The notes: generated by a model not told the origin, from the sequence alone. DNA of 64,000 nt from an uncultured Acidobacteriota bacterium (GCA_963741955.1 CAVUKB010000007.1:864001-928000), one strand, 5' to 3'; numbered from the stretch's first letter, positions 36,820 through 59,145 are shown. Numbers and translations: made by a program.

Positions 36820-38205
36820 TTACTTCAGCCGGTCGTCACTTTCCCGATTCAGTTTCCGCAACTTGTATCCGATCAGGCTCCGCGAGACGCCGAGGTCGCG
36901 CGCGGCGGCCGCCTGCACTCCATTCGCGCGCTCGAGGGAGCGCCGGATCACCATCGATTCGAACTCCCGCATCACACCGTGGAGCTCCAGGCCCGGAGGA
37001 AGTGATTGGAGAAGCCGGTCGAGGGCCTCGTTCCACGGGGGCTGATTCGAGCGGAGTGGCAGATCCTCGGGGGTGATGCAGTCACTGCGGGCGAGGATGA
37101 CCGCTCTTTCGATGAGGTTTCGGAGCTCTCGGACGTTTCCGGGGAACGCGTACGAGCAGAGGTGTTGAACCGCCTCTTCGGAGAGCCTCACCGGTCGCGC
37201 GTTCATCTCCCGAACCGCCTGCCGGACGAAGAATTCCGCGAGGATCGGAACGTCCTGGAGCCGCTGGCGCAAGGGAGGCACCTCGATCGGGACGACGGCG
37301 AGGCGGTAGTAGAGATCCTCGCGAAAGGTTCCCTCCTTGACCATCGCGGGAAGATCGCGGTTCGTGGCGACGATCACGCGTGCGTCGATGCGACGCGGCT
37401 GAGTCGAGCCGACGCGGACCACATCGCCATCGACGAGAACCCGAAGGAGCTTGGCCTGGAGCGAAGGGGACATCTCGCTCGCCTCGTCGAGAAAGAGCGT
37501 CCCTCCGTGTGCCGCCTCGAACAATCCCTGGCGAGGACGGTCGGCTCCGGTGAAGGCGCCGCGCTCATGGCCGAACAGCTCACTCTCCAGCAGCGTCTCG
37601 GTAACCGCGGCACAGTTCACCGCAATGAATGGCTTCCGGCTGCGAGGGCTCGCCGCGTGGACCGACCGGGCGACCAACTCCTTTCCGCTCCCGGTTTCGC
37701 CCACGATCAGCACCGTCGCATTCGTCGGGGCGACGCGCGACACGAGATCCCGCAGGACGGACATGGCCTCCGAGTCGCCGATCAGAGATCTGCCGCCCGA
37801 GTCGGGCGCCGATCGGCGGAGGAGGAGATTTTCGCGCGAGAGCTCGGTTCGTTCGCAGGCGCGGCGGACGATCATCAGGACGTGATCGGGGACGAACGGC
37901 TTGGGGATGAAATCGAACGCGCCGGCGCGCATCGCCTCCACCGCGAGCTCGACGGTGGCGAACGCCGTGAGAAACACCACCGGCAACGTGGGGTCCACGT
38001 CGCGGCAGAATGCGAGCAGCTCGAGACCTTCGCCGTCCTGCATCTTCTGATCGGTCAATACCAGATCGAAAATGTTCCCGGAGAGCGCCGCCCGGGCATC
38101 GCGAAGACCCGTGGCTTCGGCGACCTCGTGGCCGTCGCTCCGGAGCAGGCTGCGCAGAATCTTTCTCAGGTTGGCTTCGTCGTCTACGACGAGGATGTGC
38201 GCCAT
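36820..38205 (-). CDS. sigma54-dependent response regulator (NtrC/AtoC family)
   Basis: Receiver; GETGSGKE, GAFTGA, FREDLYYRL, PGNVREL; Fis HTH. Confidence 0.95.
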   Translation of the reverse strand: MAHILVVDDEANLRKILRSLLRSDGHEVAEATGLRDARAALSGNIFDLVLTDQKMQDGEGLELLAFCRDVDPTLPVVFLTAFATVELAVEAMRAGAFDFIPKPFVPDHVLMIVRRACERTELSRENLLLRRSAPDSGGRSLIGDSEAMSVLRDLVSRVAPTNATVLIVGETGSGKELVARSVHAASPRSRKPFIAVNCAAVTETLLESELFGHERGAFTGADRPRQGLFEAAHGGTLFLDEASEMSPSLQAKLLRVLVDGDVVRVGSTQPRRIDARVIVATNRDLPAMVKEGTFREDLYYRLAVVPIEVPPLRQRLQDVPILAEFFVRQAVREMNARPVRLSEEAVQHLCSYAFPGNVRELRNLIERAVILARSDCITPEDLPLRSNQPPWNEALDRLLQSLPPGLELHGVMREFESMVIRRSLERANGVQAAAARDLGVSRSLIGYKLRKLNRESDDRLK

Positions 38206-38208
38206 GAA

Positions 38209-39525
38209 TCAGGTCTCCTGTGGAACCGGTTCGGATGGAATCGTTCCGGTGAGTGGAAGAAGAATCTCGAAAAGGATCCGTCCGGGTTCGTTCGACGCGA
38301 GGAAGAGGTCTCCGTGATGACTCCGGGCGATCGAGCGGGCGATCGCGAGCCCGAGCCCGGTCCCCGCCGGACGGGTGGTGAAGAACGGTTCGAAGATCTG
38401 GCTGCGGATTTCCGGCGGCACCGGCTCCCCGGGATTTTCCACCGCGATCGCAATTCCCTCCGGACGGGCGAGACCCCGCACCACGACCTCTCCTCCGGGC
38501 GGCGTGGCCTCGATCGCGTTGGAGACGAGATTCAGCACCGCACGGTGGAGCTGGTGCACGTCCGCCTCGACGACGATTTCTTCGTCGCAATCGATCCGGA
38601 GCCGGAGGCCGGCCTCGGCCACCTTCCCCTGAGCCAGATCGCGGGCGTATCCGAGTATGGAAACGAGTGGAACGCAACTGCGGTCGGGTGGCGTCTGACG
38701 GGCGTAGATCAAAAAATCCGAGACCAGCCGCTCCAGACGTGTGGCTTCCTGTTCGATGATGGAATCGAGCTCACTTCGCGAGAGGCCGATCGTCTCTCCG
38801 CGACCGGACATGGCGAGAGAACTGAGGATCATCGCGACGGGGTTCCGGATCTCGTGCGCGACCGAGCTCGCCAGCCGGCCGATGGCGGCGAGCTTCTCCT
38901 CCTCCACCAGCCGGTCACGGGTGATCTGCAGCTGCTCGAAACTCTCACTGAGCCGTCTCTGTTCTTTCCGGAGTTGTCTCGACAGAAGCGCGACGACCGT
39001 TCCCACCACGATGTAGATCAGCGCGACATTCGCCGCTTCGAAGTATTCGGTCACCCGAACCGTGAGTGCAGATCGAAAGTAGAGCCACACCTCGAGGATG
39101 GTCAACGCGGTCACCACGGTGATCACCAGCACCAGGCCGCGCGTACGGTAGCGGAATCCGGCGGCGATCACCGGGATGATCATCAGCACGACGTAGTGCG
39201 CATCCTGCAGCCCGCTCGCGCGGGAGAGGAGAAATGCGAAGCCGACGTGCAGCCAGATCGTGACGTTCGCGTATGCCGAAAGGATCCGCCGGCTGGAGGG
39301 GCGTCCGTTCTGCAGACAAATCAGCTCCACCGTCTGCATCAGCACCCGGAAGAGGAGCACCACGAAAAAAAGGCGGCCTGGGGTTCCGAGAGCCGGCACG
39401 AACAGCACGTGCGCGGCGGCGATTCCTGAGAGAACCGCGAGGTTCAGGAGTATCAGGCGCGACTCCTGGCGCCGGAGGGAGACGGCGTCGAAGAGAGCCG
39501 CGACGTCTGGAGTGCGAGAGGTCAT
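38209..39525 (-). CDS. Membrane sensor histidine kinase
   Basis: About 6 TMs; AHEIRNP, NAIEA, FEPFFTT, GTGLGL. Confidence 0.92.
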   Translation of the reverse strand: MTSRTPDVAALFDAVSLRRQESRLILLNLAVLSGIAAAHVLFVPALGTPGRLFFVVLLFRVLMQTVELICLQNGRPSSRRILSAYANVTIWLHVGFAFLLSRASGLQDAHYVVLMIIPVIAAGFRYRTRGLVLVITVVTALTILEVWLYFRSALTVRVTEYFEAANVALIYIVVGTVVALLSRQLRKEQRRLSESFEQLQITRDRLVEEEKLAAIGRLASSVAHEIRNPVAMILSSLAMSGRGETIGLSRSELDSIIEQEATRLERLVSDFLIYARQTPPDRSCVPLVSILGYARDLAQGKVAEAGLRLRIDCDEEIVVEADVHQLHRAVLNLVSNAIEATPPGGEVVVRGLARPEGIAIAVENPGEPVPPEIRSQIFEPFFTTRPAGTGLGLAIARSIARSHHGDLFLASNEPGRILFEILLPLTGTIPSEPVPQET

Positions 39526-39586
39526 CGCGTTTGCCCTCGACCGGGAGTCTATCAGGGTCGGTGAATGAATGGGGGGGCGCCGCCGC

Positions 39587-39714
39587 TGTCGCAGAATTCG
39601 AACGCCCGCGGACCTCGCGTCGAAGAAGTTGGACGTCGGCTGAGTCGGTCCGGAGAAACAAATCGAGTGTTTACTTACGTTTCCGCCGATCGCCGTCACG
39701 GCACGCGCGTTGCG
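39587..39714 (+). promoter_or_regulatory. sigma54 promoter with candidate enhancer sites and IHF site
   Basis: CGGCACGCGCGTTGCG (GG-N10-GC, 39700-39713); AATCGAGTGTTTA (39661-39673); two GTCG.AGAA.T.G.ACG elements at 39587 and 39618. Confidence 0.72.
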
Positions 39715-39758
39715 CATGGAGCCTCCGAAACGAACCACGAGGTTCGTAAGGAGGAAAT

Positions 39759-40409
39759 GTGATGACGTTTCGAAGAGTAGTGATTCTTTTTTCCATGGCT
39801 GCCCTCGTCGCGGCGACGGTCCTGATGGTCGCCCCCGCGAGCTCCGAAGCTTCGGCCGTTCCCGCGGTGAGCGCGAAGACCATGGCCAACCTGATGGCGG
39901 CATACAACGGCGAGAGCAACGCCCACGCCCGCTATCTCGCCTTCGCCGAGAAGGCGGAGCAGGACGGGAAGGGTGAAGTGGCGAGCCTGTTCCGCGCCGC
40001 AGCGCGCGCCGAGGAGATTCACGCCAGCAATCACGCGACCGTAATCAAGAAGTTCGGCGGCAAACCGGAAGCGAAGATCGAAGACCCCAACGTCGGAACG
40101 ACCGAAGAGAATCTCACCGCTGCCGTCAAAGGTGAAACATACGAGAAGGACGTGATGTACCCGGATTTCATCGCTCAGGCGAAGAGTGAGCGCAATCGCG
40201 ACGCTCTCCGGACGTTCAACTATGCCCGGACCGCAGAGATCGAGCACGCGAACCTCTACTCCAACGCGAAGAAGAATCTGGCCACCCTCGGTGATGCTAA
40301 GACGACCTACTACGTCTGCACCATCTGCGGCTACACCACCACCAATCTCGATTTCACCAAGTGCATTTCGTGTCTGAATCCGAAGGACAAGTACGTGCCG
40401 GTCAGCTGA
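39759..40409 (+). CDS. Rubrerythrin with N-terminal signal peptide
   Basis: GES, EEIH, GETYE, EIEH diiron ligands; CTIC...CISC rubredoxin site; TFRR plus hydrophobic leader. Confidence 0.92.
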   Translation: MMTFRRVVILFSMAALVAATVLMVAPASSEASAVPAVSAKTMANLMAAYNGESNAHARYLAFAEKAEQDGKGEVASLFRAAARAEEIHASNHATVIKKFGGKPEAKIEDPNVGTTEENLTAAVKGETYEKDVMYPDFIAQAKSERNRDALRTFNYARTAEIEHANLYSNAKKNLATLGDAKTTYYVCTICGYTTTNLDFTKCISCLNPKDKYVPVS

Positions 40410-44513: not shown

Positions 44514-47500
44514 ATGGAATCGCTCTTCGGATGCCTATCGCTGTTTCTGATACTCCTTGCCCTCGCCGCACTGGTCGGTGCGTGGATCGTGGTGCTCGGT
44601 GTGAAGTCGCGGGTCCGCGCTCTGGAAACGGAGACGCGTCAGCTCCGTACCGCGAACGAGATCATCAAGGCCCGTCTTCTCGAAGTTTTTTCTCTCCTCG
44701 ACGAGAAATCAGCTGGAGGGTCTGAACCCGGCGGACCCGAGGCGCCGCAATCAGACATCCGCACAGCTTCCCTCCCGGAGGAGGCTCCGGAGGTTCATCC
44801 CGAAGCCGTCGCGCCCCCCGCCGTTCCGGAGACGAGTGCGGCGTTCGAGACGCTTCCCGTCGATGTTTCTGAAGACCTGACCCCCGAGGGGACGGCTCCT
44901 CCGGGTCCCCCCATTGCGGAGAGGGAAGATCGTGCCGCACACGAAGCGGCAGCAGTTCCGCCTCCCGGCGTGCCGCCTCCGGAAGATCAAGGTGGTCCGC
45001 CGAGTCCACCCGTGCCGCCGAAGCCTCACCGGTCGTTCGACTGGGAAAGCGTGATCGGGGTGAACCTTTTTTCGTGGATCGCCGGCTTCGCTCTCGCGCT
45101 CTCGGCGATTCTCTTTCTCCGCTACTCGGTCGAGCATGGCTGGCTGCAGCCGTGGGTGCGGTTCTCTCTCGGATTCGTCACCGGAACCGCGCTTCTCGTT
45201 GCCAATCAGATGAAGTTCGCGCGGCGTTACCGCGTCACCTCGAATGCGCTCGACGCAGCTGGAATCGCGATCCTCTACGCGTCGCTCTTCGCCGCCCATG
45301 CGTTGTGGCATCTCCTCCCTTCCACCCTCGTCTTCGCGCTGATGATCGTGGTCACTGCGATCGCGGTGATCCTCTCCATTCAGCGGGAGTCGATCTTCAT
45401 CGCGCTCCTGGGGCTGCTCGGCGGATTCGCCACGCCGGCGCTCCTCTCCAGCGGTGAGGATCATCCCTTCGGCCTCTTCGGATATCTCCTGATGCTGAAT
45501 GCGGGACTCGGATGGGTCTCGTATCGGAAGCGATGGCCGGTTCTCTCGGCGTTGACGCTCCTCTTCACCACCCTCTATCAATGGGGATGGGTGACGCGCT
45601 TTCTGGAGTCCTCGAAACTGCCGATCGCGGTGGGAGTTTTTCTGGTCTTTCCGATTGTCGCGGTGGCGGGGATCTGGATCGCACGACCTTCCGGCGACGG
45701 AGAGGAGAAGAAGTTCGAGAGTATCGCGGCGTTCAGTTCGGCGCTGCCGCTCGTCTTCGCAGTCTACTTCGCAGCGGCGCCCGCGTACGGCGCACGATTC
45801 GGACTTCTCTTCTTCTTTCTCCTTCTGGTCGACGCCGGACTCGCAGCGATCGCGATCTCCCGCCGCGGTCCCGAGGTGCTCCACCTCCTCGGCGCGCTGA
45901 CCACAGTCCTGACGTTCGGGGTCTGGTGCGCATTTTCGTACCGCTCGGCGGCGTGGCCGGCGATGGTCTTCTGGATTGCGGCATTCGTCGCTCTCTATCT
46001 AATCGCGGACCTGGTCGCCGGCCGCCTTGGCCGGCGCTTCGAAGGGGCCGGAGCACTCGCGGCGTACGCTGCGCCGCTCCTTCTCTTCGTCTTCGCGTTT
46101 CTCGGCTACGCCGAACCGAAGACGGCGGCGCCGGCTCTTCTCTTCTCCGTGCTGTTCGTCCTGGTGGCGGCGAACGCGTGGGGGGCGATCCGGTCGGACG
46201 ATGGGCGGATCTTCCATCTGGCGACAGCGGCTGCCCTGGCAGCCGAGGCCATCTGGTCGGCGAAGCACCTCGCTCCGGCGACACTCACCAGCGCGCTCGT
46301 GATCTATGCGGCATTCGCACTCCTCACTCTTGCGGTTCCGGTCGTCGCGCGACGGCGCGGGAAGGAGCTGAGGCCCGCGATCGCGTCGCCGCTGATGGTC
46401 ATCGGCTCACTTCTGCTGTTGTTCTTTCTGACCGGAGCCGGGGTGGCTGCTGTTTCTCTGGGGGGGCTCGCGGTACTGCTGATCATCGCGAACCTGGGGC
46501 TGTTCGCATCCGGCGCGGCGATCCGCCATCCGCTACTCGCCGCCGTCGCTGCGGTTCTTTCGTGGCTGGTCCTGGTGGCGTGGTGGATCGCGGTACCGCT
46601 TGCTGTCCACCTCGTGCCTGCGCTCTCGGTGATCGCGGGGTTCTCGGTCCTGCTGCTCGGAGCGAATGTCGTTCTGCAGCGGAGTGGCCGGGCGGATGAA
46701 AGGCCGGAATCTCAGCAGACTCTTTACCTCGCGCTCGCGGGACACCTGTTTCTCCTCGTCGTCGCGATGAATCCGTCACTCTCCGTTCCCCCCTGGCCGA
46801 TGCTGGCAGTGCTCGGTGTGATCGACCTCGCGGTCGGCGTCACGGTGCTCTTTCTCGGTCGCGCGAGGCTGCTCGGCGCGGCGATGGTGGCATCGCAACT
46901 CGTGCTGGTGGCCTGGGCGTCGTCGGTCACGGCGGTGCCCTGGCCGCAGGTGGCGGTGTGGAGCGCGCTTGTCGTGGCGGCCTTCGCCGGGGCGTGGATC
47001 TTCGCCGCGGAACGACGTCTCGGAAGCGAGTGCCGGCTCCGCTTCTCCGCGGCTGCCGCGGGTGCCATCCTGATCGGCCACTTCGTGGTGATCGCAGCGG
47101 GTGAAGCAGCCGCGCATCCGACGACGGGAATGGTCACGCTCGCACATGTTCTGCTGCTCGCCGGGATGCTGCTCATTGCCGCGCGCGCATCGATGCACTA
47201 CCTGGCCATCTTCGAAGTCGTGCCGTTCGCGATCGCGATTTTTCTCTGGATGGGCGAGACGTACCAGCCGGCGCAGTGGGGTGGCGAGATGTTTCTCGCG
47301 ACCGTTCTCTATCTCATGTTCATCGCGTATCCGCTGCTTCTCGGCAGGCGCGGGAAGGCCGCGTTCGAACCCGCGCTGGCATCGGCATTCGCATCGATTC
47401 CCTTCTTCTTCTTTGCGCGTACGGAGCTGATGCGACGTGGACTCGGTGATGCGATCGGACTTCTTCCGCTCGCTCAGGCAGCGCTGCTCCTGGCGGTGCT

Positions 47501-48281
47501 CTGGATGCTGCTTCGCATCGAAGAGCCCGGAAAGCGGAACAACGGACGCCTGGCGATGGTCGCGGGGAGCGCGCTCGCCTTCATCACCGTGGCCATACCA
47601 CTCCAGTTGGAGAAGGAGTGGATCACGGTGGCGTGGGCCCTGGAAGCGGCGGCCTTGCTGTGGCTCTTCCTCCGGATCCCGCACCGGGGTCTCCTGTACT
47701 GGTCCGCCGCGCTCTACTCCGTCGTCTTCGTTCGACTGGTTTTCAATCCCGCGGTCTTCGGGTACCACGCCCGAAGCCCGATCGCGATCTGGAACTGGTA
47801 TCTCTATGCGTATCTGGTCGCCGCGGCTGCGTTCTTCGCCGGAACACGACTGCTTGGAAAAACCGGGAAAGATTCGTCGAGCCTCCTGGCGAGGATGCCG
47901 GCTCTTCTCGCGTCCGGAGGCACGGTTCTCCTCTTTCTGTTGTTGAACATCGAGATCGCGGACTACTTTTCGAAGGGTTCCACCATCACGTTCACCTTCT
48001 CGGCGGGGTTTGCCCAGGATCTGACGTACACCGTCCTCTGGGGGGTGTTCGCGGTCGGGATGCTGGTGGCGGGGATCATCACCGGAAGCCGGGGGGCGAG
48101 AATCGCGTCGATCGGACTTCTCCTGGTGTCGGTCTTGAAGGCCTTCCTCCACGACCTGATCCGCCTCGGTGGCCTCTATCGGGTGGGATCGCTCCTCGGG
48201 CTGGCGATCGCGCTCGCATTCGTCGCGCTGCTTCTGCAGCGCTACATTCTGGTCAAGCCGGAGCCGGAGAAGATGCCGTGA
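44514..48281 (+). CDS. DUF2339-like large polytopic membrane protein
   Basis: WESVIGVNLFSWI, LRYSVEHGW, GGFATP, ITVAWALEA, KAFLHDL...RVGS. Confidence 0.82.
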   Translation: MESLFGCLSLFLILLALAALVGAWIVVLGVKSRVRALETETRQLRTANEIIKARLLEVFSLLDEKSAGGSEPGGPEAPQSDIRTASLPEEAPEVHPEAVAPPAVPETSAAFETLPVDVSEDLTPEGTAPPGPPIAEREDRAAHEAAAVPPPGVPPPEDQGGPPSPPVPPKPHRSFDWESVIGVNLFSWIAGFALALSAILFLRYSVEHGWLQPWVRFSLGFVTGTALLVANQMKFARRYRVTSNALDAAGIAILYASLFAAHALWHLLPSTLVFALMIVVTAIAVILSIQRESIFIALLGLLGGFATPALLSSGEDHPFGLFGYLLMLNAGLGWVSYRKRWPVLSALTLLFTTLYQWGWVTRFLESSKLPIAVGVFLVFPIVAVAGIWIARPSGDGEEKKFESIAAFSSALPLVFAVYFAAAPAYGARFGLLFFFLLLVDAGLAAIAISRRGPEVLHLLGALTTVLTFGVWCAFSYRSAAWPAMVFWIAAFVALYLIADLVAGRLGRRFEGAGALAAYAAPLLLFVFAFLGYAEPKTAAPALLFSVLFVLVAANAWGAIRSDDGRIFHLATAAALAAEAIWSAKHLAPATLTSALVIYAAFALLTLAVPVVARRRGKELRPAIASPLMVIGSLLLLFFLTGAGVAAVSLGGLAVLLIIANLGLFASGAAIRHPLLAAVAAVLSWLVLVAWWIAVPLAVHLVPALSVIAGFSVLLLGANVVLQRSGRADERPESQQTLYLALAGHLFLLVVAMNPSLSVPPWPMLAVLGVIDLAVGVTVLFLGRARLLGAAMVASQLVLVAWASSVTAVPWPQVAVWSALVVAAFAGAWIFAAERRLGSECRLRFSAAAAGAILIGHFVVIAAGEAAAHPTTGMVTLAHVLLLAGMLLIAARASMHYLAIFEVVPFAIAIFLWMGETYQPAQWGGEMFLATVLYLMFIAYPLLLGRRGKAAFEPALASAFASIPFFFFARTELMRRGLGDAIGLLPLAQAALLLAVLWMLLRIEEPGKRNNGRLAMVAGSALAFITVAIPLQLEKEWITVAWALEAAALLWLFLRIPHRGLLYWSAALYSVVFVRLVFNPAVFGYHARSPIAIWNWYLYAYLVAAAAFFAGTRLLGKTGKDSSSLLARMPALLASGGTVLLFLLLNIEIADYFSKGSTITFTFSAGFAQDLTYTVLWGVFAVGMLVAGIITGSRGARIASIGLLLVSVLKAFLHDLIRLGGLYRVGSLLGLAIALAFVALLLQRYILVKPEPEKMP

Positions 48282-50296
48282 AGGTGAAGACCATACGGAC
48301 CGGCGCGGCCATCCTGTTCATGCTGATCGCCGGGACGCTTTTCGCGAGCCAGTTCCGGAACGAGAGGATCGTGCTTCCCTCCGGAGAGGGACCGAACATT
48401 CTCGATGTCGACGTCCCGCTCCTTTCCGGGGCGAAGCCGCTTCGTTACGCCGAGGCGAAAGGTAGCGACACGTTTCATCTGCTCGGAGGACTCGAGGATC
48501 TCCGCTTGTTCGACGCCGCAGGAAAGGAAGTGCCGTACCTGGTGGTCCCTCCCGAGAGCGGAGAGGCGCACTGGAAGGAAGGGCGGGTTCTCGACGTCGC
48601 ATCGACGAAGACGACGAGCGGGTTCGAAGCCGATCTCGGCGCGAGCTCGCTCATCGACCGGATCCGCGTCTCCGGTCTCGACGCACCGTTTCTGAAGAGG
48701 TTCCGGCTCGAAGGAAGTGGAGATCGCGAACACTGGACGGTACTGGTCGAATCGGGGACCCTTTTCGATCTACCGGAGGAACATCTGCGGAAGACGGATG
48801 CCTCGTTCCCCGCGGGCGAATACCGGTATCTTCGCGTGACCTGGGATGATCGCTCCAGCTCGAGAGTCGGGAAGCCGGCCTCGGTCGAGGCGCGAGAGGT
48901 GCGCCGTCCGTTACCGCCCCGTCCTTTCGTTCCGGTCCGCTTCTCCTGGCGTGCGAGTGAACCGCGGAAGAGCCGTATCGCCCTGCGTCTGCCCGGACGA
49001 AATCTTCCCGTGACGGCCATCGATATTCAGGTGGCGCGTGGACATGTACTGCGGGACGCGGTGATCACCGAGGCGCGGTTCCGGAGTGGCGAGGTCGCGC
49101 CGGTGAACATTGGCCACGCGGTTCTGCGGCGTGCGGAACGCGGCGAGGACGTCGCACAGGAGCTGAGAATACCGGTGGACCGCCCACACGGGACGGATCT
49201 GGAGCTGCTGATCGAGGACGGGGACAATCCTCCTCTGGCAATCACGGGTGTCGAAGCCGAGCTCGCGCCGCTGCCGCAGATCTATTTCGAAAGCCGTGAC
49301 GGCGCGCCGATCACTGCCCGCTACGGAGAGGGAGACCTTTCGCGGCCGCATTACGACCTCGAGGCCGCGCGTGATTCCGTCGATCTCGCGAATGCATCGC
49401 GGGCGCGCTGGGGTGAGCCGAAATCGATCGCTGCGGTTCCGGAAATGGATGCGGCGATCCGTTCGGCTCCTCCTGCCGGTCCGGTGGTGCACGAAGAAGA
49501 CTTCGGGTACAAGCGAAACATCCCGGCGATCGAGCCCGGGATGATTGCCATCCAGCTGGACCTCGCTGCGCTGGCACATTCGAACGGATTGAAAGACATC
49601 CGGGTGGTCGACGAGAAGGAGAAGCAGATTCCGTACGTCATCGAACGAAGAGGAGAGCCGCTCGAATTCGAGTTTCCCGTCAACCGGGTCGATGACGAGG
49701 ACGCGCGAAGGTCCCGGTACCCGCTGGTTCTTCCGTACGACTCCCTTCGTTGGAAGGGGACGCTGGTGGTCGAGACGGACGCCCCGCTGTTCGAGCGTGC
49801 GGTGACTCTCGTCGCGAGCAACGGCAAGGAGGGACGTGACGACGGCGAAGTGGTGGTGGAGCGAAAGCTGTGGCAGCACACCGAGCCGGAGACCGCGGCG
49901 CCCCCGATCTCGTTCGATGTTCCGCTCGACGGGCATTCCGCATGGGAGCTGACGATCGAGGAAGGCGACAACCCGCCGCTCCCGATCCGCCGGATCCGGT
50001 TACTGTTGCCGAGTTACAGAGTCCGTCTGTTCCATCCTCCCGGTTCGCAGTTGACCATGTTGTACGGAAATCCACACGCGGATGCGCCGCGCTACGATCT
50101 CGAGCTGATGCGGGCGCGCATCGTCGGAATGGACGCGGCGGAGATCACGCCGGGCGAAGAGATCGTGAACGCCGGTCTCGCTGCCGAGCGTCCTGCGCGC
50201 ATCTTCTGGGGCATCATCGTGGCCGCCGCGATCGTTCTGCTGGCGCTGCTGGCGAAGCTTCTGCAGCACTCCGAGCGCCAGCCGAAGCAGTCCTGA
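48278..50296 (+). CDS. DUF3999-like exported protein with C-terminal TM anchor
   Basis: DLRLFDAAGKEVPY; IE.GDNPPL.I and YG..P.YDL each twice; overlaps the upstream stop. Confidence 0.75.
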   Translation: MKVKTIRTGAAILFMLIAGTLFASQFRNERIVLPSGEGPNILDVDVPLLSGAKPLRYAEAKGSDTFHLLGGLEDLRLFDAAGKEVPYLVVPPESGEAHWKEGRVLDVASTKTTSGFEADLGASSLIDRIRVSGLDAPFLKRFRLEGSGDREHWTVLVESGTLFDLPEEHLRKTDASFPAGEYRYLRVTWDDRSSSRVGKPASVEAREVRRPLPPRPFVPVRFSWRASEPRKSRIALRLPGRNLPVTAIDIQVARGHVLRDAVITEARFRSGEVAPVNIGHAVLRRAERGEDVAQELRIPVDRPHGTDLELLIEDGDNPPLAITGVEAELAPLPQIYFESRDGAPITARYGEGDLSRPHYDLEAARDSVDLANASRARWGEPKSIAAVPEMDAAIRSAPPAGPVVHEEDFGYKRNIPAIEPGMIAIQLDLAALAHSNGLKDIRVVDEKEKQIPYVIERRGEPLEFEFPVNRVDDEDARRSRYPLVLPYDSLRWKGTLVVETDAPLFERAVTLVASNGKEGRDDGEVVVERKLWQHTEPETAAPPISFDVPLDGHSAWELTIEEGDNPPLPIRRIRLLLPSYRVRLFHPPGSQLTMLYGNPHADAPRYDLELMRARIVGMDAAEITPGEEIVNAGLAAERPARIFWGIIVAAAIVLLALLAKLLQHSERQPKQS

Positions 50297-50375
50297 AGGC
50301 GAGAACAGAGCCTCCCATCCCGCGGCGGGGTCGGGTATACAGTCACCGTGCAGCCGCCGATGGTCTCTCCTCATA

Positions 50376-50445
50376 CCCTATCCAAAGATAGGGGTGTAAA
50401 CCTATCCGAAAGTATCTTGACGCTCCAGTGAGCGAAGGTTAGATT
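50376..50445 (+). promoter_or_regulatory. sigma70 promoter with upstream repeat sites
   Basis: TTGACG-17-TAGATT (50417-50445); CCCTATC-caaa-GATAGGG and a second CCTATCC at 50401. Confidence 0.65.
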
Positions 50446-50450
50446 CGGCA

Positions 50451-50549
50451 GCAGACACAGACAGGAAGATTGCAAGACAGACGAACCGCATACATCACAG
50501 ATTCGTGTCGCAATCAGGCGACGACAAAGGGGCGTAACGCCCCTTTTTT
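50451..50549 (+). ncRNA. Candidate ~100-nt small RNA or attenuator leader
   Basis: Lies between promoter and terminator; no ORF; central hairpin; repeated CAGAC-like words. Confidence 0.6.
50526..50549 (+). terminator. Strong Rho-independent terminator
   Basis: AAAGGGGCG-TAA-CGCCCCTTTTTT. Confidence 0.85.
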
Positions 50550-50678
50550 CGTCTGAGGGCTTTCCGGACGCACCTGCTGCGGGAGAGGCGTCCAGTCCAA
50601 TGGCTTCGGATCGGGTACTACAGGAAACGTGTGTCCGGACGAAACCCGGTTCTGACGACTCGAGGAGAAGGCATCCAT

Positions 50679-51884
50679 ATGCTTCCGACAAGACAGGTCA
50701 GAGATCACAGTGAGGCCCCGTTGGTGGATCGGCACATCAGGACGTCCCACGACGAACGTGGAGTTGCTCTGGTGCTGGTGATGCTCGGCCTTTCGGTCGT
50801 GCTGATGGTCCTCCTCTCCGGTCTGGTCATGACTGAATTCTCCGGGAAGACGATCGCGCGCCAGCTCGCATGGCAGGGACAGGCGTTGAACGCGTCACGG
50901 GCGGGACTCAATGAAACGCTCTCCTGGTTCGTGCGGCGGCCGGTTCAACCGGTGACCACGTTCGATCCTCAAAAGGATCTCACCGCCGTTCCGCCGCTCA
51001 ACGAGACGGAGGATCCCACCGTCGGTCTCGTGCGGTCGTACGAGATCTCGGACCGAGGGCGGGTGTGGGGTCGCTACGAAGTCGATAAGTCCGTGGTGGC
51101 CGACGTCAGTGCGCAGCGAGGGAAGTCGCAGCCGGGCACGATCTGGGAAGTGGAGTCGAAGGGAATCATCTACATACGAAACGATGCAGCGAAAGCGCCG
51201 GACGAAGCGCCGAATCGGGTGCTCGCGCACGCGACGATGCGCACCGACATTCAGAGACTGGGGCTGCAGCTTCCGGCGGATTGCGCCCTCTGCGCGGAAA
51301 AGGGGCAGTTCGTCAACGTGGCGGCGACGGCGAGAGTGCGAGGAGGAACGGGAATCGGGATCGCCTACCTTCCGTCGACGGGAACGCCAAAGATCGCCCA
51401 GGCGAGCTCCGTCACCGGCTCCCCGAGACTGAACGCCACGACGGGATCGTTCCAGCTTCAGGACATTTTCGGGGTCACTCAGCAGGAATTGATCGGAATG
51501 GCAGACGTGGTGGTGAAGGACGAGCGTGACCTCCCGGATCCGCTTCCCGACATGTCTCTCGTCGTGATCACCGGAAACGCGACCTTCACTCCGCAGCGGA
51601 GGCTCCTTGGCAGCGGAATCCTGGTCGTACTCGGAAATCTCGTACTCAACCCGCAATCGAACTCGATGTTCAATGGGGTGATCTGGGTCGGAGGCACCTT
51701 CCAGCAGGGCGAGCCTTCGCTGATCGGCGGATCGGTGGTGGTTCGGGGGAATGCCCTCCTCACCGGAGGCTCCGACATTTCGGAGATCGATTACGACCCG
51801 AACATGATCGACCAGGTCAGGCAGCAGATGGGGAACTATCTCTTCAGCCGGATGCCCTGGATTCTGGGTCGGATAGGAGACTGA
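50679..51884 (+). CDS. PilX/GspK-like minor pilin
   Basis: ERG|VALVLVML class III signal lacking Glu5; ALNASRAGL; C-terminal beta-helix-like G.LVV.GN repeats. Confidence 0.78.
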   Translation: MLPTRQVRDHSEAPLVDRHIRTSHDERGVALVLVMLGLSVVLMVLLSGLVMTEFSGKTIARQLAWQGQALNASRAGLNETLSWFVRRPVQPVTTFDPQKDLTAVPPLNETEDPTVGLVRSYEISDRGRVWGRYEVDKSVVADVSAQRGKSQPGTIWEVESKGIIYIRNDAAKAPDEAPNRVLAHATMRTDIQRLGLQLPADCALCAEKGQFVNVAATARVRGGTGIGIAYLPSTGTPKIAQASSVTGSPRLNATTGSFQLQDIFGVTQQELIGMADVVVKDERDLPDPLPDMSLVVITGNATFTPQRRLLGSGILVVLGNLVLNPQSNSMFNGVIWVGGTFQQGEPSLIGGSVVVRGNALLTGGSDISEIDYDPNMIDQVRQQMGNYLFSRMPWILGRIGD

Positions 51885-54800
51885 TGATGAAGAGTCACCA
51901 GAAGGGCATGTCGCTGATCGAGGTTCTCGTCTCGCTCGGCATCCTCTCCGTGATCATCGTGGCGTCCCTCCAGGTGGCGACCACGGTCACCCGAACGACA
52001 CAGAACAACATGCAGAAGCAGTTCGCCACCCAACGAGCGATGTCGATGCTGGAAGAGCTGAAAGGGGTGATTCAATCCGATCAGGGTGCGACCGCGACGC
52101 TTCTGGACGACTATGACGACGGGACGACCAATCGCCCCCTCCTCACCACCCAGAAAGACGTGACCGATCCGGCTTCACCGCAAAGCGGAAACGTACCGCT
52201 CGGCCCCGGTCGCTGGCTCTACGAGCGGCGAATCACGGTGCGGAAGCTTCCCGGCCAATCCAACGATCTCCGCCTGGTCAACGTCACGGTGTACATCAAC
52301 GAAGAGGGAGGGCAGAGACCCCTGGCGGATGTCGCATCGGTACTGAGTACGATCGCGGTGAATCTACCGCCAACCCAGGTGTACGACGTCTATTGCGTCG
52401 CAATCGAGAATGTTCCAGGGTGGTGGGTCTACATGGCGAACGTCGTCCCCTTCGTCCAGGGAGCGATTCAGGATCTTCAGTCCCGGCATCCCGGGCTGCA
52501 GTTCCGCACCCACTGGATCCGCGAGCTCGCGTATGGACGCGATTCCCAGTACCTTCCATACGTCAACGAAGCCCAGGACTCGACGGCGACGATCAATTCG
52601 GTCTATTTCTATCCGGGAACACTCCCCTCCGGTTCGGCCGTCGACAGCTACTACCCACCCGATTTCTTCAACGGACGGATCAATGTCGATGGAGTGGAAC
52701 GCAACGGCTTCGATACGAAGAACCCTTATCCCTATGCGCTCGCCGATCAGTACAACAACGCGATGCGGTATCCGGACGAACTGGCTCTTTTCAACCTCCG
52801 AGTCGCATCGGGGAAGGAACGCGCGGACCAGCCGACTCTCCGCCTCCTTCTCGACGACATGTACATGCATCCGTCCAAGTACCAGAACGCGATCCTGATC
52901 AACCTTCACGGCGAGCTCTTTCCGTTCCCTCCGGTTCGCAACTACTCCGATGCGGCGAAGGATCCTCTGGACGATCCGTACATCCGCGCCGTGACTCATC
53001 CGGAACAGCTGCACTACGCCAATACGGATCCTCTGCGACTTCGTGTGTACGGCTATCACATGAATCGCAGCAACCCCGCGGCGGAACCCGAATGGCTCGG
53101 AGAGAATCGCGCCTCGCCGGAGCCGATCACCCTGGTGCTCAAGGGCATCAACTGGTCGCCGACACCAGCCGACGTGACCGCGATCACCGGAGGGGTCGAC
53201 TTCAATGGTGACGGATCACCGGATCCCTATTCGGCCGACCCGACCTCTTCTTCTCCTCTTCCGGCGGTTGCGCCAACGGGAATGTGGTTCCGCTCGTACG
53301 GCAGCGGGAGCGATACGGTGATCGAGCTGTACAACACTCCGCTCCAGACTCCGTGTGTGACCGCAAAGCACTCCCACACCCTCTGCGACGAGGGTGGACT
53401 GATGGACACGCACCGGCTCTACGGACTGGAGTACATCCCCTCTCCGGTCGAGGATCTGACCGGAAGCGCTGCACCTGCGCCCTTCAGTACGGACCTGACC
53501 TCTGCCGGCGACGGGGAGAAGAACACCGCACGTTGGGTGATCACCATCCCCTCCTACGTCCTGCCGCAGGACGCGACGATCACCATCGAAACGAGAATCG
53601 GGTCCGACATCGGAACCGGGATCCTCTATCCCGTCCCGTCGAAACCAGCTGACCTGTCGCGCACGTACGTCTGGCGAGGCGACGATCTGTGGGCGTTCGG
53701 CGATGCGACTCACGAGCCCCACATTCCGATCACCGAGCAATATCAGATGCTCGGTGATCCGCGCCACAATCCCTATGCTGATCTCAAGCTTCCTCACGAG
53801 GGTTCGGGCTATCCGAACGTGAGCCGTCTCGGAATGGGCTACAACCGATATTTCGACGATTTCCACAACGGCGCAGCGAATCGGGCCGCCTGGTGGCCCG
53901 GGTACTCCTATCAGGCGCCTTTGTTCAGTGGGAAGTGGTACGGAGTGAAGAACAATCCGACCGATACGGATCCTAACGACGACGGGTGGGACACCGGGGC
54001 CGGTCAGATCGACGCAGACGTGCCGAGGATTTTCGAAGTAGTCCGAACGGCCATTCTGCGGGCGAACGCCGTATACACCACCATGACCGGGTTTTCCTAC
54101 TTCTACGTCGGGCTCGGCGGCGAGATCGGCTACGACTCGGCGAACAATTTCCCGAGCTCCATCGCAGTGTCAGAAAAACCCTTCAGCGGTAAGGGCGGCT
54201 GGCGGTTCGAGCAGTCGATCACCAATGACACCATCAACGGCAACGAAGGTGGCGTGAAGTACATCCGGGAGAATACCAGCGGGAATTACTGGTGGTCGAT
54301 GAGCTGGCTGGGAGAGCTCTATCCCGATTCGATGTACGGGGGTGCCAACGGATGGGCGGCAACAGGGAATCTCCCGACCGGAACCGGAAGCGGAACGTTC
54401 ATTCGCGTGCTGAGGAAGAACGTCACGAGCTGGCTTCCCTCAGGGACGACGCTGCAGAGCTCCGTCCATAGAACTCAGGAAGAGGGAAGCACTTCTTTCT
54501 TCTGGAGTGGATCTCCGAACTCCACTTTCCACCACCGTTATCAGGACGGAACGAACGGGACCCTTGCGGCGGACGGTCAGGACATCGCGGCGAACTATCA
54601 GTTCCCGATTCCTCAGAGCATCCCGAACGCCAGGCCTTTCGACATCAATGTGAATGACACGGGGATGAATCCGGATCACTTCCTTCAGCCGGTTTATGGC
54701 GAAGCCCTGACCCTGGAGAAGGAAGCGGAGTTCTACCGCCATTCGACGAACATTCAGGGGAGCAGTCTGATTTCGATGCGACAGCCTTCGAGCGGAGATA

Positions 54801-55351
54801 CCGCATTCGTGGTGGTGAACGGTCTCTCGCCGACCGGACAGTCGGGAGTTGCCTTCATGGCGCGCTGGTCGTTCCTCAGCCTGATCCAGAGCTATCTGAT
54901 TGCGGGACGGTATCCCGGGGGGTCAGGGACGGATGAGCACAGAGTCCGTGAACTGCCGCGGGTGACGATCGCCTCTCCCAACGATTCCATGGAGCTCGAC
55001 GATCCGGCTTCCATCGATGTCCAGTGGAACGTGCAGTGGCTGCGATGGGACGGAAAGAAATACACACCCGGCTATCCTGCCGGATTCGCCGAAGACACCC
55101 CGCTGCAGTTCGTGACCCTTTACAGTCGTGACAACGGGAAGACCTGGCTCTACATGCAGGACGATTCGCCGGCGAATCCCGGTGCGCGCCCTTCGGATCC
55201 CGCGAAGCTGGTGACCGCCACTTCGTACAGCTGGGGCGTTCCCTCGGGGAGTTTCCCGAAGGGTAACTATCTGATCCGGGTCGAGGCCTACCGAGGCAAC
55301 CGGACACTCCACTACTCGTTCCACGAATACCGGGCTTACATCAAGAGGTAG
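51884..55351 (+). CDS. Giant (1155 aa) prepilin-type protein with PilV/GspI-like N-terminus
   Basis: QKG|MSLIEVLVSLGIL with Glu5; ~1000-aa extra region; Ig-like C-terminus. Confidence 0.85.
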   Translation: MMKSHQKGMSLIEVLVSLGILSVIIVASLQVATTVTRTTQNNMQKQFATQRAMSMLEELKGVIQSDQGATATLLDDYDDGTTNRPLLTTQKDVTDPASPQSGNVPLGPGRWLYERRITVRKLPGQSNDLRLVNVTVYINEEGGQRPLADVASVLSTIAVNLPPTQVYDVYCVAIENVPGWWVYMANVVPFVQGAIQDLQSRHPGLQFRTHWIRELAYGRDSQYLPYVNEAQDSTATINSVYFYPGTLPSGSAVDSYYPPDFFNGRINVDGVERNGFDTKNPYPYALADQYNNAMRYPDELALFNLRVASGKERADQPTLRLLLDDMYMHPSKYQNAILINLHGELFPFPPVRNYSDAAKDPLDDPYIRAVTHPEQLHYANTDPLRLRVYGYHMNRSNPAAEPEWLGENRASPEPITLVLKGINWSPTPADVTAITGGVDFNGDGSPDPYSADPTSSSPLPAVAPTGMWFRSYGSGSDTVIELYNTPLQTPCVTAKHSHTLCDEGGLMDTHRLYGLEYIPSPVEDLTGSAAPAPFSTDLTSAGDGEKNTARWVITIPSYVLPQDATITIETRIGSDIGTGILYPVPSKPADLSRTYVWRGDDLWAFGDATHEPHIPITEQYQMLGDPRHNPYADLKLPHEGSGYPNVSRLGMGYNRYFDDFHNGAANRAAWWPGYSYQAPLFSGKWYGVKNNPTDTDPNDDGWDTGAGQIDADVPRIFEVVRTAILRANAVYTTMTGFSYFYVGLGGEIGYDSANNFPSSIAVSEKPFSGKGGWRFEQSITNDTINGNEGGVKYIRENTSGNYWWSMSWLGELYPDSMYGGANGWAATGNLPTGTGSGTFIRVLRKNVTSWLPSGTTLQSSVHRTQEEGSTSFFWSGSPNSTFHHRYQDGTNGTLAADGQDIAANYQFPIPQSIPNARPFDINVNDTGMNPDHFLQPVYGEALTLEKEAEFYRHSTNIQGSSLISMRQPSSGDTAFVVVNGLSPTGQSGVAFMARWSFLSLIQSYLIAGRYPGGSGTDEHRVRELPRVTIASPNDSMELDDPASIDVQWNVQWLRWDGKKYTPGYPAGFAEDTPLQFVTLYSRDNGKTWLYMQDDSPANPGARPSDPAKLVTATSYSWGVPSGSFPKGNYLIRVEAYRGNRTLHYSFHEYRAYIKR

Positions 55352-57142: not shown

Positions 57143-58297
57143 CTAGCGCCTCAGGCCACGCGAGCGATACATGTCGGCGTCCGCACGGATGATCGCGTCC
57201 TGGAGCGACCGTTCGTTTCCGTACTCCGCCACGCCCCACGAAAGATGAAGCGGACGGAGTTCACCGGGGTGCAGCGGGAAGACGAGACTCCGGTTGATTT
57301 CGTCGAAACGGCGGGCCGCCGCCCCCGCATCGAGGCCCGGCAGAATCGCCAGAAACTCGTCGCCTCCCCATCGGAACAGGAAATCGTCAGCACGAATGAT
57401 GCTGCGGATCGCCTGTGCGGCGCTCCGGATCGCGGCGTCGCCTGCGTCGTGACCTTCGAGATCGTTGATCTCCTTCAGAAAATCGAGATCGACCATCACC
57501 ACGGTTCCGGCTTCGCCTGCGCCGCTGCTCACTTCGGCCTCGGTGAGCTCGTAAAGTGCGTGACGGTTGAGCGTTCCCGTGAGAGGGTCCGTCAGCGCCT
57601 TCCTGGCCAGCAGATCGTGTGACTGGCGCAACCGCTCCACCTCCGTCCGGAGCTCGGTCTTCGCTTCTTCGGTGATGACCAGAATCATTCCGAAACCGAG
57701 GAGGAGAGTTCCCAAAGCATCCGCAACCGGAGCCCACACCAGGAAATCGAGACGCACCCACGTGCCGTGGATCGAGTAGAGAGGAACGTAGGCGACGAAA
57801 AGTACCGCCAGAAATGCGAGAGAGCTCCGCATCATTTGCCATCCCGCGCTCCGCTCCTCCGGGGCGACTCTCCCCAGCAGACGGAAGGACCAGACGAATG
57901 CGATCGCGGCCACCGCGGCTTCGACGGCGAAGAGGCGGACCAGTCCCGGCGCAACGATGACCATGAGGATCGCCAGGGCTGCACCGAGCGGAATCAGTGC
58001 CGCGTTCTTCCGCCAGGGGAGAGGACGCCGCCGCACCAGCATGCTGAAGCCCGCAGCGAGGAGAAAGGCGAACGACCATTCGGAAAGGAGGAAGACCAAC
58101 CACCACATCCGGTCGTCCGACACGAGATACGCGTGCACCGACAGGAGTGCAACGAACATCGAGCCCCACGCCGCCGCCCACAGCCGGGGATAGATCCGCT
58201 CCGAGCTCTGAGAAGCCCACACCAGCGCCAGCGCGAGGAGCAACGTCCCTCCCGCTTCGAAGGCGAGCGCAGTACCGGAGAAGAGTTGATCGAACAT
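57143..58297 (-). CDS. Membrane diguanylate cyclase
   Basis: About 7 TMs; DPLTG, DLDFLKEIND, RWGGDEF. Confidence 0.92.
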   Translation of the reverse strand: MFDQLFSGTALAFEAGGTLLLALALVWASQSSERIYPRLWAAAWGSMFVALLSVHAYLVSDDRMWWLVFLLSEWSFAFLLAAGFSMLVRRRPLPWRKNAALIPLGAALAILMVIVAPGLVRLFAVEAAVAAIAFVWSFRLLGRVAPEERSAGWQMMRSSLAFLAVLFVAYVPLYSIHGTWVRLDFLVWAPVADALGTLLLGFGMILVITEEAKTELRTEVERLRQSHDLLARKALTDPLTGTLNRHALYELTEAEVSSGAGEAGTVVMVDLDFLKEINDLEGHDAGDAAIRSAAQAIRSIIRADDFLFRWGGDEFLAILPGLDAGAAARRFDEINRSLVFPLHPGELRPLHLSWGVAEYGNERSLQDAIIRADADMYRSRGLRR

Positions 58298-58425: not shown

Positions 58426-59145
58426 TCAGTCGAGCTTGATCGACTTCTTCGTCTTGTCGCGGCGGCTCTTTTCCTTCGCGTTGTACTCGTCCATACAGCT
58501 TCCCTTGTCCACCATCGCGCAGGAGAGATAATCGCTGATCTCGATGATGCAGCCGCGGATCGCTTTTCCGACCGGAGTGTTGTTGTACTTCTCCAGCCCT
58601 CCGCCGAGTCCGTGCGTATATCCGCTCGCGTTCAGGCCATAGCTCGAGGAGCGCGCCTCGACGGTGCGCGTGAACGCGACCTCGCCGGTCGTTGTATCGA
58701 TGACCCGGAGGTCGACCGCCATGTACGCCTCGTCCTTCTTGCCGCCGACGTGGAGTCCCCGGAAGCTCAGACCACCGCCACCACCCTGGGTCTTCTCTTC
58801 GAACGAGCTGACCGTTGCGACGACCAGATACTGCGCTCCGGTCACCTTCCCGATTTTCGCGCCGGTGCTGGCGCTGATCCGTCCGGAAGCCGCGAGATCC
58901 TGTTCGTCGAGAACCGCGTTCAGCTTGTCGCGCTCGACCATTCTGAACTTGTCCGTCGAGGCGAGCTCGTTGGTCAGCATCCCCGCCAGATCGTTCCCCA
59001 CGCCGCCGTACCACCAGCCGGCCGACGTGTCGTTGCGAAACTCCGCGACCGCGAGAGTCGGTTTTCCGGCCGCGGCGCTGATCACCGGAAATGCGAAAAC
59101 GACGACGAGTGAGGCAAGGAGAAGAATCTTCCAATTTCTATTCAT
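58426..59145 (-). CDS. CsgG/HfaB-family exported protein
   Basis: LAVAEF, FRMVER..L..VLDEQ, GAQYLV, VDLRVIDTTTGEV. Confidence 0.85.
   Translation of the reverse strand: MNRNWKILLLASLVVVFAFPVISAAAGKPTLAVAEFRNDTSAGWWYGGVGNDLAGMLTNELASTDKFRMVERDKLNAVLDEQDLAASGRISASTGAKIGKVTGAQYLVVATVSSFEEKTQGGGGGLSFRGLHVGGKKDEAYMAVDLRVIDTTTGEVAFTRTVEARSSSYGLNASGYTHGLGGGLEKYNNTPVGKAIRGCIIEISDYLSCAMVDKGSCMDEYNAKEKSRRDKTKKSIKLD

Follow-up and report, generated by a model that had tools for sequence, protein, structure and literature searches.

Protein-controlled terminator attenuators, such as those of BglG/LicT RAT, ANTAR, TRAP and PyrR, use one RNA motif that is common to a regulon, and the ANTAR target consists of two tandem hairpins whose hexanucleotide loops carry a conserved A1 and G4. 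RfaH/ops, LoaP and the pLS20 conjugation leader represent processive antitermination of long surface-structure or conjugation operons, the RfaH/LoaP type of which relies on a specialised NusG paralog, commonly encoded next to the operon, and on a recruitment element in the leader; SreA/SreB (riboswitch-derived) and rnTrpL are small RNAs that arise by premature termination in a 5' untranslated region. The 3' module of Hfq- or ProQ-dependent small RNAs begins with a stem-loop, continues through a single-stranded linker rich in A/U, and ends in a Rho-independent terminator that has a U-tail. Here, we analyzed a stretch of 64,000 nucleotides (nt) from an uncultured Acidobacteriota bacterium (GCA_963741955.1 CAVUKB010000007.1:864001-928000; hereafter the window, with positions counted from its first letter), in which a first-pass annotation had pointed out a promoter-to-terminator unit of about 100 nt in front of a pilin-like gene cassette and had read it as either a protein-sponging small RNA or an attenuator of the pilin operon. 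Comparison with relatives indicates that this unit (50417-50549) is a copy of an RNA element that is genuine and conserved and had not been described before. At its own locus, we favor with roughly even confidence the reading that it is a terminator-based 5' leader of the cassette, which would also yield a ~98-nt RNA. The original observation was partly confirmed and its interpretation partly supported.

The conserved part of the unit is a 3' module with a fixed order, namely a hairpin of 4-6 base pairs (bp; hereafter hairpin 2), a RACARA linker, and a near-invariant GGGGC-GUAnn-GCCCC hairpin that is usually followed by a U-tract. We constructed a covariance model, R1, from the 3' modules of 48 relatives, with the window's copy excluded. 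R1 scored the window's unit at 44 bits (E 2.6e-8) and matched one other place on the + strand of the same genome, at 32.7 bits. An alignment of the 48 relatives' 3' ends (A1) contained a near-invariant (A)AAGGGGCGUAnnGCCCCUUUU, the RACARA linker, and a short hairpin directly before the linker. The core five stem pairs were identical (G-C/C-G) in 97-99 of 99 distinct rows of the model-based alignment; GTAAC was the commonest loop, being found in 45 of 92 unique hairpins, and a leading T-run of at least 4 followed the hairpin in 80 of these 92. The conservation is at the sequence level, not of structure alone. The window's copy has the same stem and GUA loop (GGGGC-GUAAC-GCCCC, 50529-50543), followed by T6 at 50544-50549.

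Hairpin 2 was examined with a register-free scan. In 40 of 48 units, the scan found a hairpin of at least 4 bp whose end lies 5-8 nt 5' of the terminator, while the 200 shuffles averaged 25% and reached at most 40%. Its stems covary, with at least five sequences (GCCG/CGGC, GGUA/UACC, CGGC/GCCG, CGGUC/GACCG and GGUGUC/GACACC). The loops are 3-8 nt long and have no conserved positions. The corresponding part of the window, (U)GUCGC-AAUCAG-GCGAC(G) with the linker ACAAA, conforms to the family pattern. Note that the claim of hairpin-2 conservation is based on the register-free scan: RNAalifold on the MAFFT alignment A1 recovered the terminator alone, missing hairpin 2 because its register shifts between sequences, and the model-based alignment (A2), in which hairpin 2 was paired in 51.8% of cells, mixes registers, reverse-strand matches and hairpins that have no hairpin 2. 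When a 281-nt region was compared with 60 relatives by BLAST, 26 matched, over query positions 153-232 and nearly all at the terminator (164-205), several of the matches sitting just 5' of homologs of the first cassette gene; no match covered the body 5' of hairpin 2.

R1 matched 101 of the 123 genomes of the window's own family (Thermoanaerobaculia, Acidobacteriota), with 1-5 matches per genome, where counts across relatives are not independent events. The concern that the element might lack conservation in relatives was thereby removed. In a class-wide sample, R1 matched 25 of 28 genomes of the own family and the single genome of a sister family, and none of 91 genomes from 14 other families; as judged from these matches, the RNA family occurs within Thermoanaerobaculia in one family (and its order) only. 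The exact 21-mer of the hairpin occurred at 51 loci in 185,579 species genomes, 33 of them titled Acidobacteriota or Thermoanaerobaculia and the remaining 18 scattered over Vibrio, Pantoea, Maribacter and others. The own genus is represented by this genome alone, and the 5' body of the window's unit is a singleton since the collections searched hold no closer relative. Metagenome scans gave 84 pattern matches with the protein of cassette gene 1, none of which was confirmed, and no match with a 27-mer of the unit.

The statement in the first-pass annotation that the unit belongs to no recognized family held throughout. Rfam 15 gave no match in the whole window at the gathering threshold and none at the loci of 20 relatives. 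At E<=10, the region 50200-50750 gave chance-level matches only, the best of which (21.5 bits against a threshold of 50) covered the terminator only. The element was not described in the literature found in our searches on Thermoanaerobaculia non-coding RNA and on Acidobacteria small RNAs and terminators. Acido-1 (RF01686) and Acido-Lenti-1 (RF01687), both in Rfam, are candidate non-coding RNAs of Acidobacteria for which comparative genomics is the sole source (PMC2864571). They share the phylum and the comparative-genomics origin with the module described here; however, neither matches 50200-50750 even at E<=10.

A plain explanation of a conserved terminator at this position is that it passively insulates the cassette against read-through from the upstream operon, the promoter-like site being fortuitous or irrelevant and no regulation being involved. 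The DUF3999 gene ends at 50296, and the terminator scan found no terminator-like site between this stop and 50526, so that the terminator probably also ends the upstream DUF2339/DUF3999 transcript. In addition, the A-tract, hairpin and T-tract can be read as a terminator on either strand, and R1 scores the minus strand of the unit at 25.9 bits. However, units are kept beside divergent upstream neighbors, where there is nothing to insulate (L041, L043 and L052), and the invariant stem differs from the diverse stems of other terminators: the GGGGC-type hairpin occurs only twice in the genome, among 93 terminator-like hairpins with diverse stems, indicating that it is not the organism's generic terminator. 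Furthermore, hairpin 2 and the linker are also conserved, and four or five pilin-leader copies (L005, L044, L153 and L157) have lost the U-tract and kept the hairpin. We therefore regard a purely insulating role as improbable. The narrower proposal that termination of the DUF2339/DUF3999 operon is all that the hairpin does was rejected, because in the 50 relatives that have a DUF3999 homolog no R1 match lies near this gene (none closer than 57 kilobases (kb) among the matches listed) and because the upstream neighbors vary. These are a PEP-utilising enzyme on the same strand (L042, L045, L047 and L048) and DUF1499, protein kinase or FHA/Trans_reg_C genes on the opposite strand, and among the loci read only the window has DUF3999 in this place. 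By this comparison of loci, the unit is independent of the upstream gene.

The downstream neighbor gave a different picture. A homolog of cassette gene 1 was found in 44 of 123 family genomes, and at least 26 of these 44 have a unit directly 5' on the same strand among the R1 matches listed. Where gene 1 is at least 52% identical, as in 24 relatives, one to three units always stand directly upstream (the gene of G142 being partial), while among the 20 homologs with 39-51% identity a unit was seen only in G029 and G117, again among the matches listed; G013, a 57-residue fragment at 51% identity, is without one on the same terms. The three unpublished genomes in the sample (G069, G117 and G118) are all within the 101 R1-positive ones. 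G069 counts among the 18 genomes whose cassette homolog lacks a unit and G117 among the 26 in which it has one; no conclusion changes when all three are dropped. Among 23 loci, the last hairpin was separated from the start codon by 25-26 nt (2 loci), 57-78 nt (16 loci) or 110-180 nt (5 loci); the separation is 22 nt in L052, and in L048 the Shine-Dalgarno sequence stands directly 3' of the U-tract. A strict promoter scan of four relatives called no sites between the hairpins or before the gene, and the -35/-10-like pairs seen by eye in L042, L043, L046 and L048 were below the scan threshold. Since the short spacing leaves no room for a promoter and the scans found none, read-through would be needed for cassette expression in most relatives. 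The first-pass annotation had asked whether homologs always precede pilin genes; the closer cassettes all have units in front of them (24/24), and units also stand before other genes and as orphans. Its attenuator alternative is supported by this comparison, that is, by the complete linkage to the closer cassettes, the 0/50 linkage to DUF3999, and the 22-78 nt spacing in relatives.

In the leader model, which we favor as the simplest account of the linkage, the spacing and the other contexts, RNA polymerase would start near 50452, and most transcripts would stop at U6 (50544-49) and be released as a ~98-nt small RNA that accumulates, with the cassette expressed only from the read-through fraction. 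From these steps it would follow that output is set at two points, the promoter with its candidate operator CCCTATC-N4-GATAGGG and the terminator. The comparison shows the sequence anatomy, the family membership, the linkage to orthologous cassettes, the independence from the upstream gene and the scant room for a separate promoter in most relatives; transcription, termination, read-through and any factor that modulates read-through are inferred. A search of sequencing runs for this DNA listed soil-metagenome DNA runs only and no RNA run.

Alternatively, the unit could be a free-standing gene for a trans-acting small RNA whose CA-rich seed (CACAG or ACAGCAA-like) acts elsewhere, while the cassette would be transcribed from a promoter of its own within the spacer of 130-175 nt. 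The consensus-grade promoter and strong terminator of the window's unit would suit such a gene, as would 27 units that follow a ferredoxin gene and have no same-strand open reading frame (ORF) within 220 nt. In addition, CACAG, ACAGC and CAGCA (and ACAGCAA) are enriched in the units of 75 relatives compared with shuffles, an enrichment that is inflated by relatedness, and CACAG occurs twice in the window's own body. The order of hairpin, A-rich linker and U-tailed terminator also resembles the 3' module of chaperone-dependent small RNAs. However, genes for CsrA (PF02599), Hfq (PF17209) and ProQ (PF04352) gave no matches in this 99.1%-complete genome, in searches run with positive controls. Moreover, the hairpin lies 22-78 nt from the cassette start in 19 loci, where a separate promoter cannot fit, and the linkage to the orthologous cassette is 24/24. 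The unit bodies were also not complementary to the cassette's ribosome-binding region in a duplex test of 23 loci (mean z +0.3; two related loci z -2 to -2.9), and the orphan units, which precede a conserved ~120-nt structured element by 9-62 nt, may be leaders too. Taken together, a free-standing trans-acting RNA, the main rival of the leader model, appears rather doubtful to us.

Several observations weigh against the leader model as well. Neither an antiterminator pairing nor a regulator of read-through was identified, and inspection of the window's unit by eye found no segment 5' of the terminator that is complementary to either half of its stem. A classical alternative-structure switch is unlikely for this last reason; the sole competing fold affects hairpin 2, not the terminator. 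The 27 orphan units fit a free-standing small RNA, and 18 of the 44 cassette homologs, the more distant ones at 39-51% identity, have no unit among the R1 matches listed. Seven R1 matches stand outside that listing, so that the cross-matched counts could miss a few. The window's own spacer is among the longest and could hold a promoter of a type outside the consensus scan. Finally, a consensus-grade promoter was found in the window's unit only, as compared with the four relatives scanned, and the start points in relatives are uncertain.

The first-pass annotation had also drawn a fold of the whole RNA and had emphasized CAGAC repeats in its 5' part. The drawn fold equals the minimum free energy (MFE) fold of 50452-50550 (99 nt), at -26.5 kcal/mol with z -3.7 and none of 200 shuffles as good. 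However, the body without the terminator (50452-50524) had z -1.31, with 19 of 200 shuffles equally stable, and the significance of the fold is therefore attributed to the terminator. An alternative fold, which contains the hairpin GUCGC-AAUCAG-GCGAC (50507-50522) and excludes the GAUUGC/GCAAUC helix, is near-isoenergetic (-25.2 vs -26.5 kcal/mol). The long body hairpin is not supported, being neither significant alone nor common to relatives; these have instead the short hairpin 5-8 nt before the terminator.

The CAGAC copies start at 50452, 50458 and 50478 as had been reported. Together with variants, they lie in an A/C-rich and mostly unpaired 5' region, which is what would be expected of a small RNA that sponges a protein in the manner of RsmY/CsrB or CrcZ. 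However, when the body was shuffled with its dinucleotides preserved, 38% of the shuffles had some 5-mer at least three times, and although CAGAC itself did so in 2.1%, this word had been picked post hoc. CAGAC was also missing from the top 20 of the words enriched in the 75 units, and the part of the unit that is conserved is the 3' module, not the repeats. No GGA-loop repeats were found in the fold of the window's RNA. Since genes for Hfq, ProQ and CsrA were not found, the sponge idea is left unsupported, and we assign it a probability close to negligible.

The coordinates of the features at the locus are shown in Table 1.

Table 1. Features of the leader unit and the first cassette genes, in window coordinates
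Feature	Position	Strand	Basis or remark
Perfect 7-4-7 palindrome CCCTATC-CAAA-GATAGGG, candidate operator	50377-50394		Sequence; centre ~66 nt 5' of predicted start
Second CCTATCC half-site (CCTATCCGAAAGTATC), partial direct repeat of the palindrome	50401-50416		Ends 1 nt before -35
Sigma-70-type promoter, TTGACG (50417-50422), 17 nt, TAGATT (50440-50445)	50417-50445	+	9/12 consensus matches
Predicted ~98-nt transcript, from putative start ~7 nt past -10 to end of U-tract	50452-50549	+	Inferred from promoter and terminator
A/C-rich 5' body, with CACAG at 50456-60 and 50496-500	50452-50506	+	Composition and word enrichment
Family-typical hairpin 2, stem GUCGC/GCGAC, loop AAUCAG	50507-50522	+	Register-free hairpin scan of relatives
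Linker GACAAA (family consensus AACAAA)	50523-50528	+	Alignment A1
Intrinsic terminator GGGGCG-UAA-CGCCCC + U6, family-invariant hairpin	50529-50549	+	Terminator scan, model alignment
Spacer from terminator to start codon, with hairpin GGACGC...GCGTCC (50566-50593) and Shine-Dalgarno GAGGAGAAGG (50663-72)	50550-50678	+	
Cassette gene 1, 401 amino acids (aa) from ATG 50679	50679-51884	+	N-terminal ERGVAL motif and hydrophobic segment
Cassette gene 2, 1155 aa, prepilin-type N-terminal methylation motif	51884-55351	+	PF07963 27 bits (cut-off 21.2); TIGR02532 21.1 bits (cut-off 16.3)

The promoter and terminator of the first-pass annotation are both present as described, and every element that it listed lies no more than one base off the reported position. 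TTGACG-17-TAGATT is the sole sigma-70-like site in 49800-51200 (1.4 kb), where shuffles give 0.2, and TAGATT is one of the most enriched words in the relatives' units. The terminator, which can be read as AAAGGGGCG-TAA-CGCCCCTTT (50526-50546) followed by T6, is likewise the sole terminator-like site in this region, and TTCGTCTG was found at 50548-50555, where it had been noted. The stretch between promoter and terminator is indeed A/C-rich (A27 C20 G18 T9 in the 74 nt of 50452-50525) and free of + strand ORFs of at least 40 aa, as scanned over 50392-50630; ORFs below 40 aa, such as short leader peptides, were not looked for. The minus-strand ORFs 50371-50691 and 50514-50750 had no Pfam matches at E<=1.

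In agreement with the reported ~130 bp to the first gene, the ATG at 50679 lies 130 nt past the T-run. Alternative starts of gene 1 are GTG 50631 and TTG 50721 / GTG 50724; this last pair would set ERGVAL ~11 residues behind the N-terminus, which is also its position in relatives, and with GTG 50724 the spacer would be ~175 nt long. The gene 1 product matched no Pfam or NCBIfam family. A strict consensus scan of the spacer 50550-50678 called no promoter-like site. A sigma-54 promoter was also considered for the spacer, and was ruled out by eye because a TGGCAC-N5-TTGC-like site is absent. Many relatives (among L144-L158) have a GGUGUGUC-like tract between the Shine-Dalgarno sequence and the AUG of gene 1; the window has GUGUGUCC at 50630-37 instead. 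In many relatives a GC-rich hairpin, often after an A5-8 tract, stands directly 5' of the Shine-Dalgarno sequence.

Regarding the wider neighborhood, the DUF2339 (44514-48281) and DUF3999 (47618-50296) frames overlap by ~660 nt as listed, and the true DUF3999 start probably lies later than the listed frame start. Farther upstream, a sigma-54 activator with a response-regulator domain adjoins a histidine kinase (36820-39903, minus strand), and 3' of the cassette there are a GGDEF diguanylate cyclase and a CsgG-like lipoprotein (57143-58297 and 58426-59145, both minus strand).

The two upstream sites reported for the promoter were also found, with one correction: the core of the second CCTATCC (50401-50407) lies 9 nt 5' of the -35 and does not strictly abut it. 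The palindrome is unique in its own genome, and CCTATCCNAAAG is likewise a single genome-wide match. The 16-mer CCTATCCAAAGATAGG (window 50378-50393) recurs in one other genus (G010, L140:1440-1530, minus strand), where a second CCTATCC follows 8 nt later, 5' of an ORF that is PAS-like by eye, no family search having been made. This recurrence of palindrome and half-site hints at a DNA-binding regulator at the promoter. In G010, the palindrome stands after a tandem GCGTCTGG(A/G) repeat array. A scan of the family for the operator palindrome gave matches in 2 of 123 relatives and in 1 of 123 for the reversed control, and one of the matches (G081) is an ordinary terminator.

Some pilin leaders carry tandem units. 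L052:960-1240 (G029) consists of three near-identical repeats of ~110 nt, and L041, L046 and L048 have three hairpins each, the middle one of L046 and L048 being a shorter variant (GGGGCGUACAUCGCCCC). The copies of GGGGCGUAACGCCCC that have lost the U-tract are first or second hairpins with stem-extending flanks (GAGAGA/UCUCUC, ACAGA/UCUGU). Short tandem repeat arrays, made of ~21-nt CAATTTCGGGTTCGCGGATCC-like units or of GGGACCGA units, were seen 5' of pilin leaders (L042:2900-3350 in G027; L040:1-130 in G031).

The module also precedes genes other than the cassette. The second copy in the same genome (contig C7:649012-649078, outside the window; 32.7 bits with R1) lies 51 nt 5' of a gene for a lipoprotein, in which three DUF5666 stretches were seen. 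In front of this copy there is a CRP/FNR-like palindrome, TGTGATCTGGATCAC, with CATATT 22 nt farther downstream (C7:648950-649130; L032:1440-1600). In relatives, units are followed by genes that are lipoprotein-like by their N-terminal sequence (L016 and L025) or that encode secreted or small membrane proteins (L009, L010, L013 and L014), and at the DUF5666 and small membrane protein genes the Shine-Dalgarno sequence lies 22-75 nt behind the module.

The 27 distinct orphan units follow a gene that was called 7Fe-ferredoxin-like by its cysteine motifs, without a family search; the ferredoxin locus of the window's own genome has an unrelated terminator only. The ~120-nt element behind the orphan units is very conserved, with 31 distinct copies in relatives (for example at L006:1557-1678, L007, L008 and L012), and reads GAGACCCUUCAG...GAGCGGGCGAAUGGGCGUGCC...GCUGAAGCUAC(CU)nGCAACGCG...GGAGGGUCUC. 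Its single-sequence MFE is -58.6 kcal/mol, and alifold gave -45.3 on the unit's strand vs -37.6 on the reverse. Rfam gave no matches to it at E<=1, and blastn found no copy in the window's own genome. It may be a second undescribed structured RNA. The promoters of the orphan units can be read in two ways, which would give a long or a short RNA (L004, L006-L008, L012, L023, L026, L057, L058, L062 and others): as TTGAnn, 17 nt and TAAATT with the spacer filled by GTGA-N6-TCAC, or as a class-II-like arrangement in which TAGATT serves a start that lies ~41.5 nt past the centre of the palindrome.

The invariance of the hairpin sequence, the conservation of hairpin 2 and linker, and the retention of hairpins that have lost their U-tract suggest that a factor recognizes the module. 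Going further, since the conservation is at the sequence level, U-tract-less hairpins are kept in pilin leaders, and the module is reused before unrelated genes, the 15-nt hairpin with hairpin 2 and linker could be the site of a lineage-specific RNA-binding factor that ties together a small envelope regulon, whether by antitermination, by enhancing termination or as a chaperone of small RNAs; we think this unlikely as it stands. The putative regulon would comprise the pilin-like cassette, the DUF5666 lipoproteins, the small membrane proteins and the ~120-nt structured RNA, and the free-standing copies, whose promoter contains a CRP-like palindrome, would be decoys or co-regulators. A second NusG-like gene is present in the genome (C6:527122-527322, minus strand; PF02357, 44.7 bits; 195-aa frame), the housekeeping copy being on C10.

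Acidobacteria are among the most abundant soil bacteria. A table in a 2022 review gives only four annotated small RNAs for this phylum (PMC9029176). The present analysis adds a testable family of RNAs from a class of mostly uncultured bacteria; a covariance model is available for it, its phylogenetic range is clear, and it recurs in three genomic contexts. Should the leader model be true, a surface-appendage cassette would be gated by a terminator sequence that is common to other envelope genes, which would represent a common post-initiation control layer in a genome where Hfq, ProQ and CsrA genes were not found. The invariant hairpin may serve as bait for finding the responsible factor.

Compared with the known systems, the unit resembles the attenuators of BglG/LicT RAT, ANTAR (with the EutX/Rli55 decoys), TRAP and PyrR in having a promoter-proximal intrinsic terminator in a 5' leader and in the reuse of one short RNA module before unrelated operons, with free-standing copies as potential decoys. 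However, it is the terminator hairpin itself that is conserved here, not an overlapping antiterminator; a competing structure was not found, and the cognate RNA-binding protein was not identified. The module also lacks the dual-hexaloop signature of ANTAR targets, with hairpin-2 loops that vary between 3 and 8 nt and a second loop of GUAnn. The order of parts is the same as in Hfq- and ProQ-dependent small RNAs, here with a 6-nt A-rich linker, a GC-rich terminator and a U5-7 tail, but no Hfq or ProQ/FinO-domain gene was detected, and all copies have the same stem sequence, unlike classical small RNAs, in which the terminator differs from one RNA to the next. As in the RfaH, LoaP and pLS20 systems, one to three terminators lie between a promoter and a long surface-appendage operon and a NusG paralog is encoded in the genome; that paralog, however, is on another contig and not beside the cassette, and the module also precedes single small genes. 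Finally, a ligand-binding or leader-peptide element like those of SreA/SreB and rnTrpL is not evident, the ORF scan having covered frames of at least 40 aa; the likeness to these RNAs lies in the output, since one promoter would yield both a short terminated RNA and a read-through mRNA.

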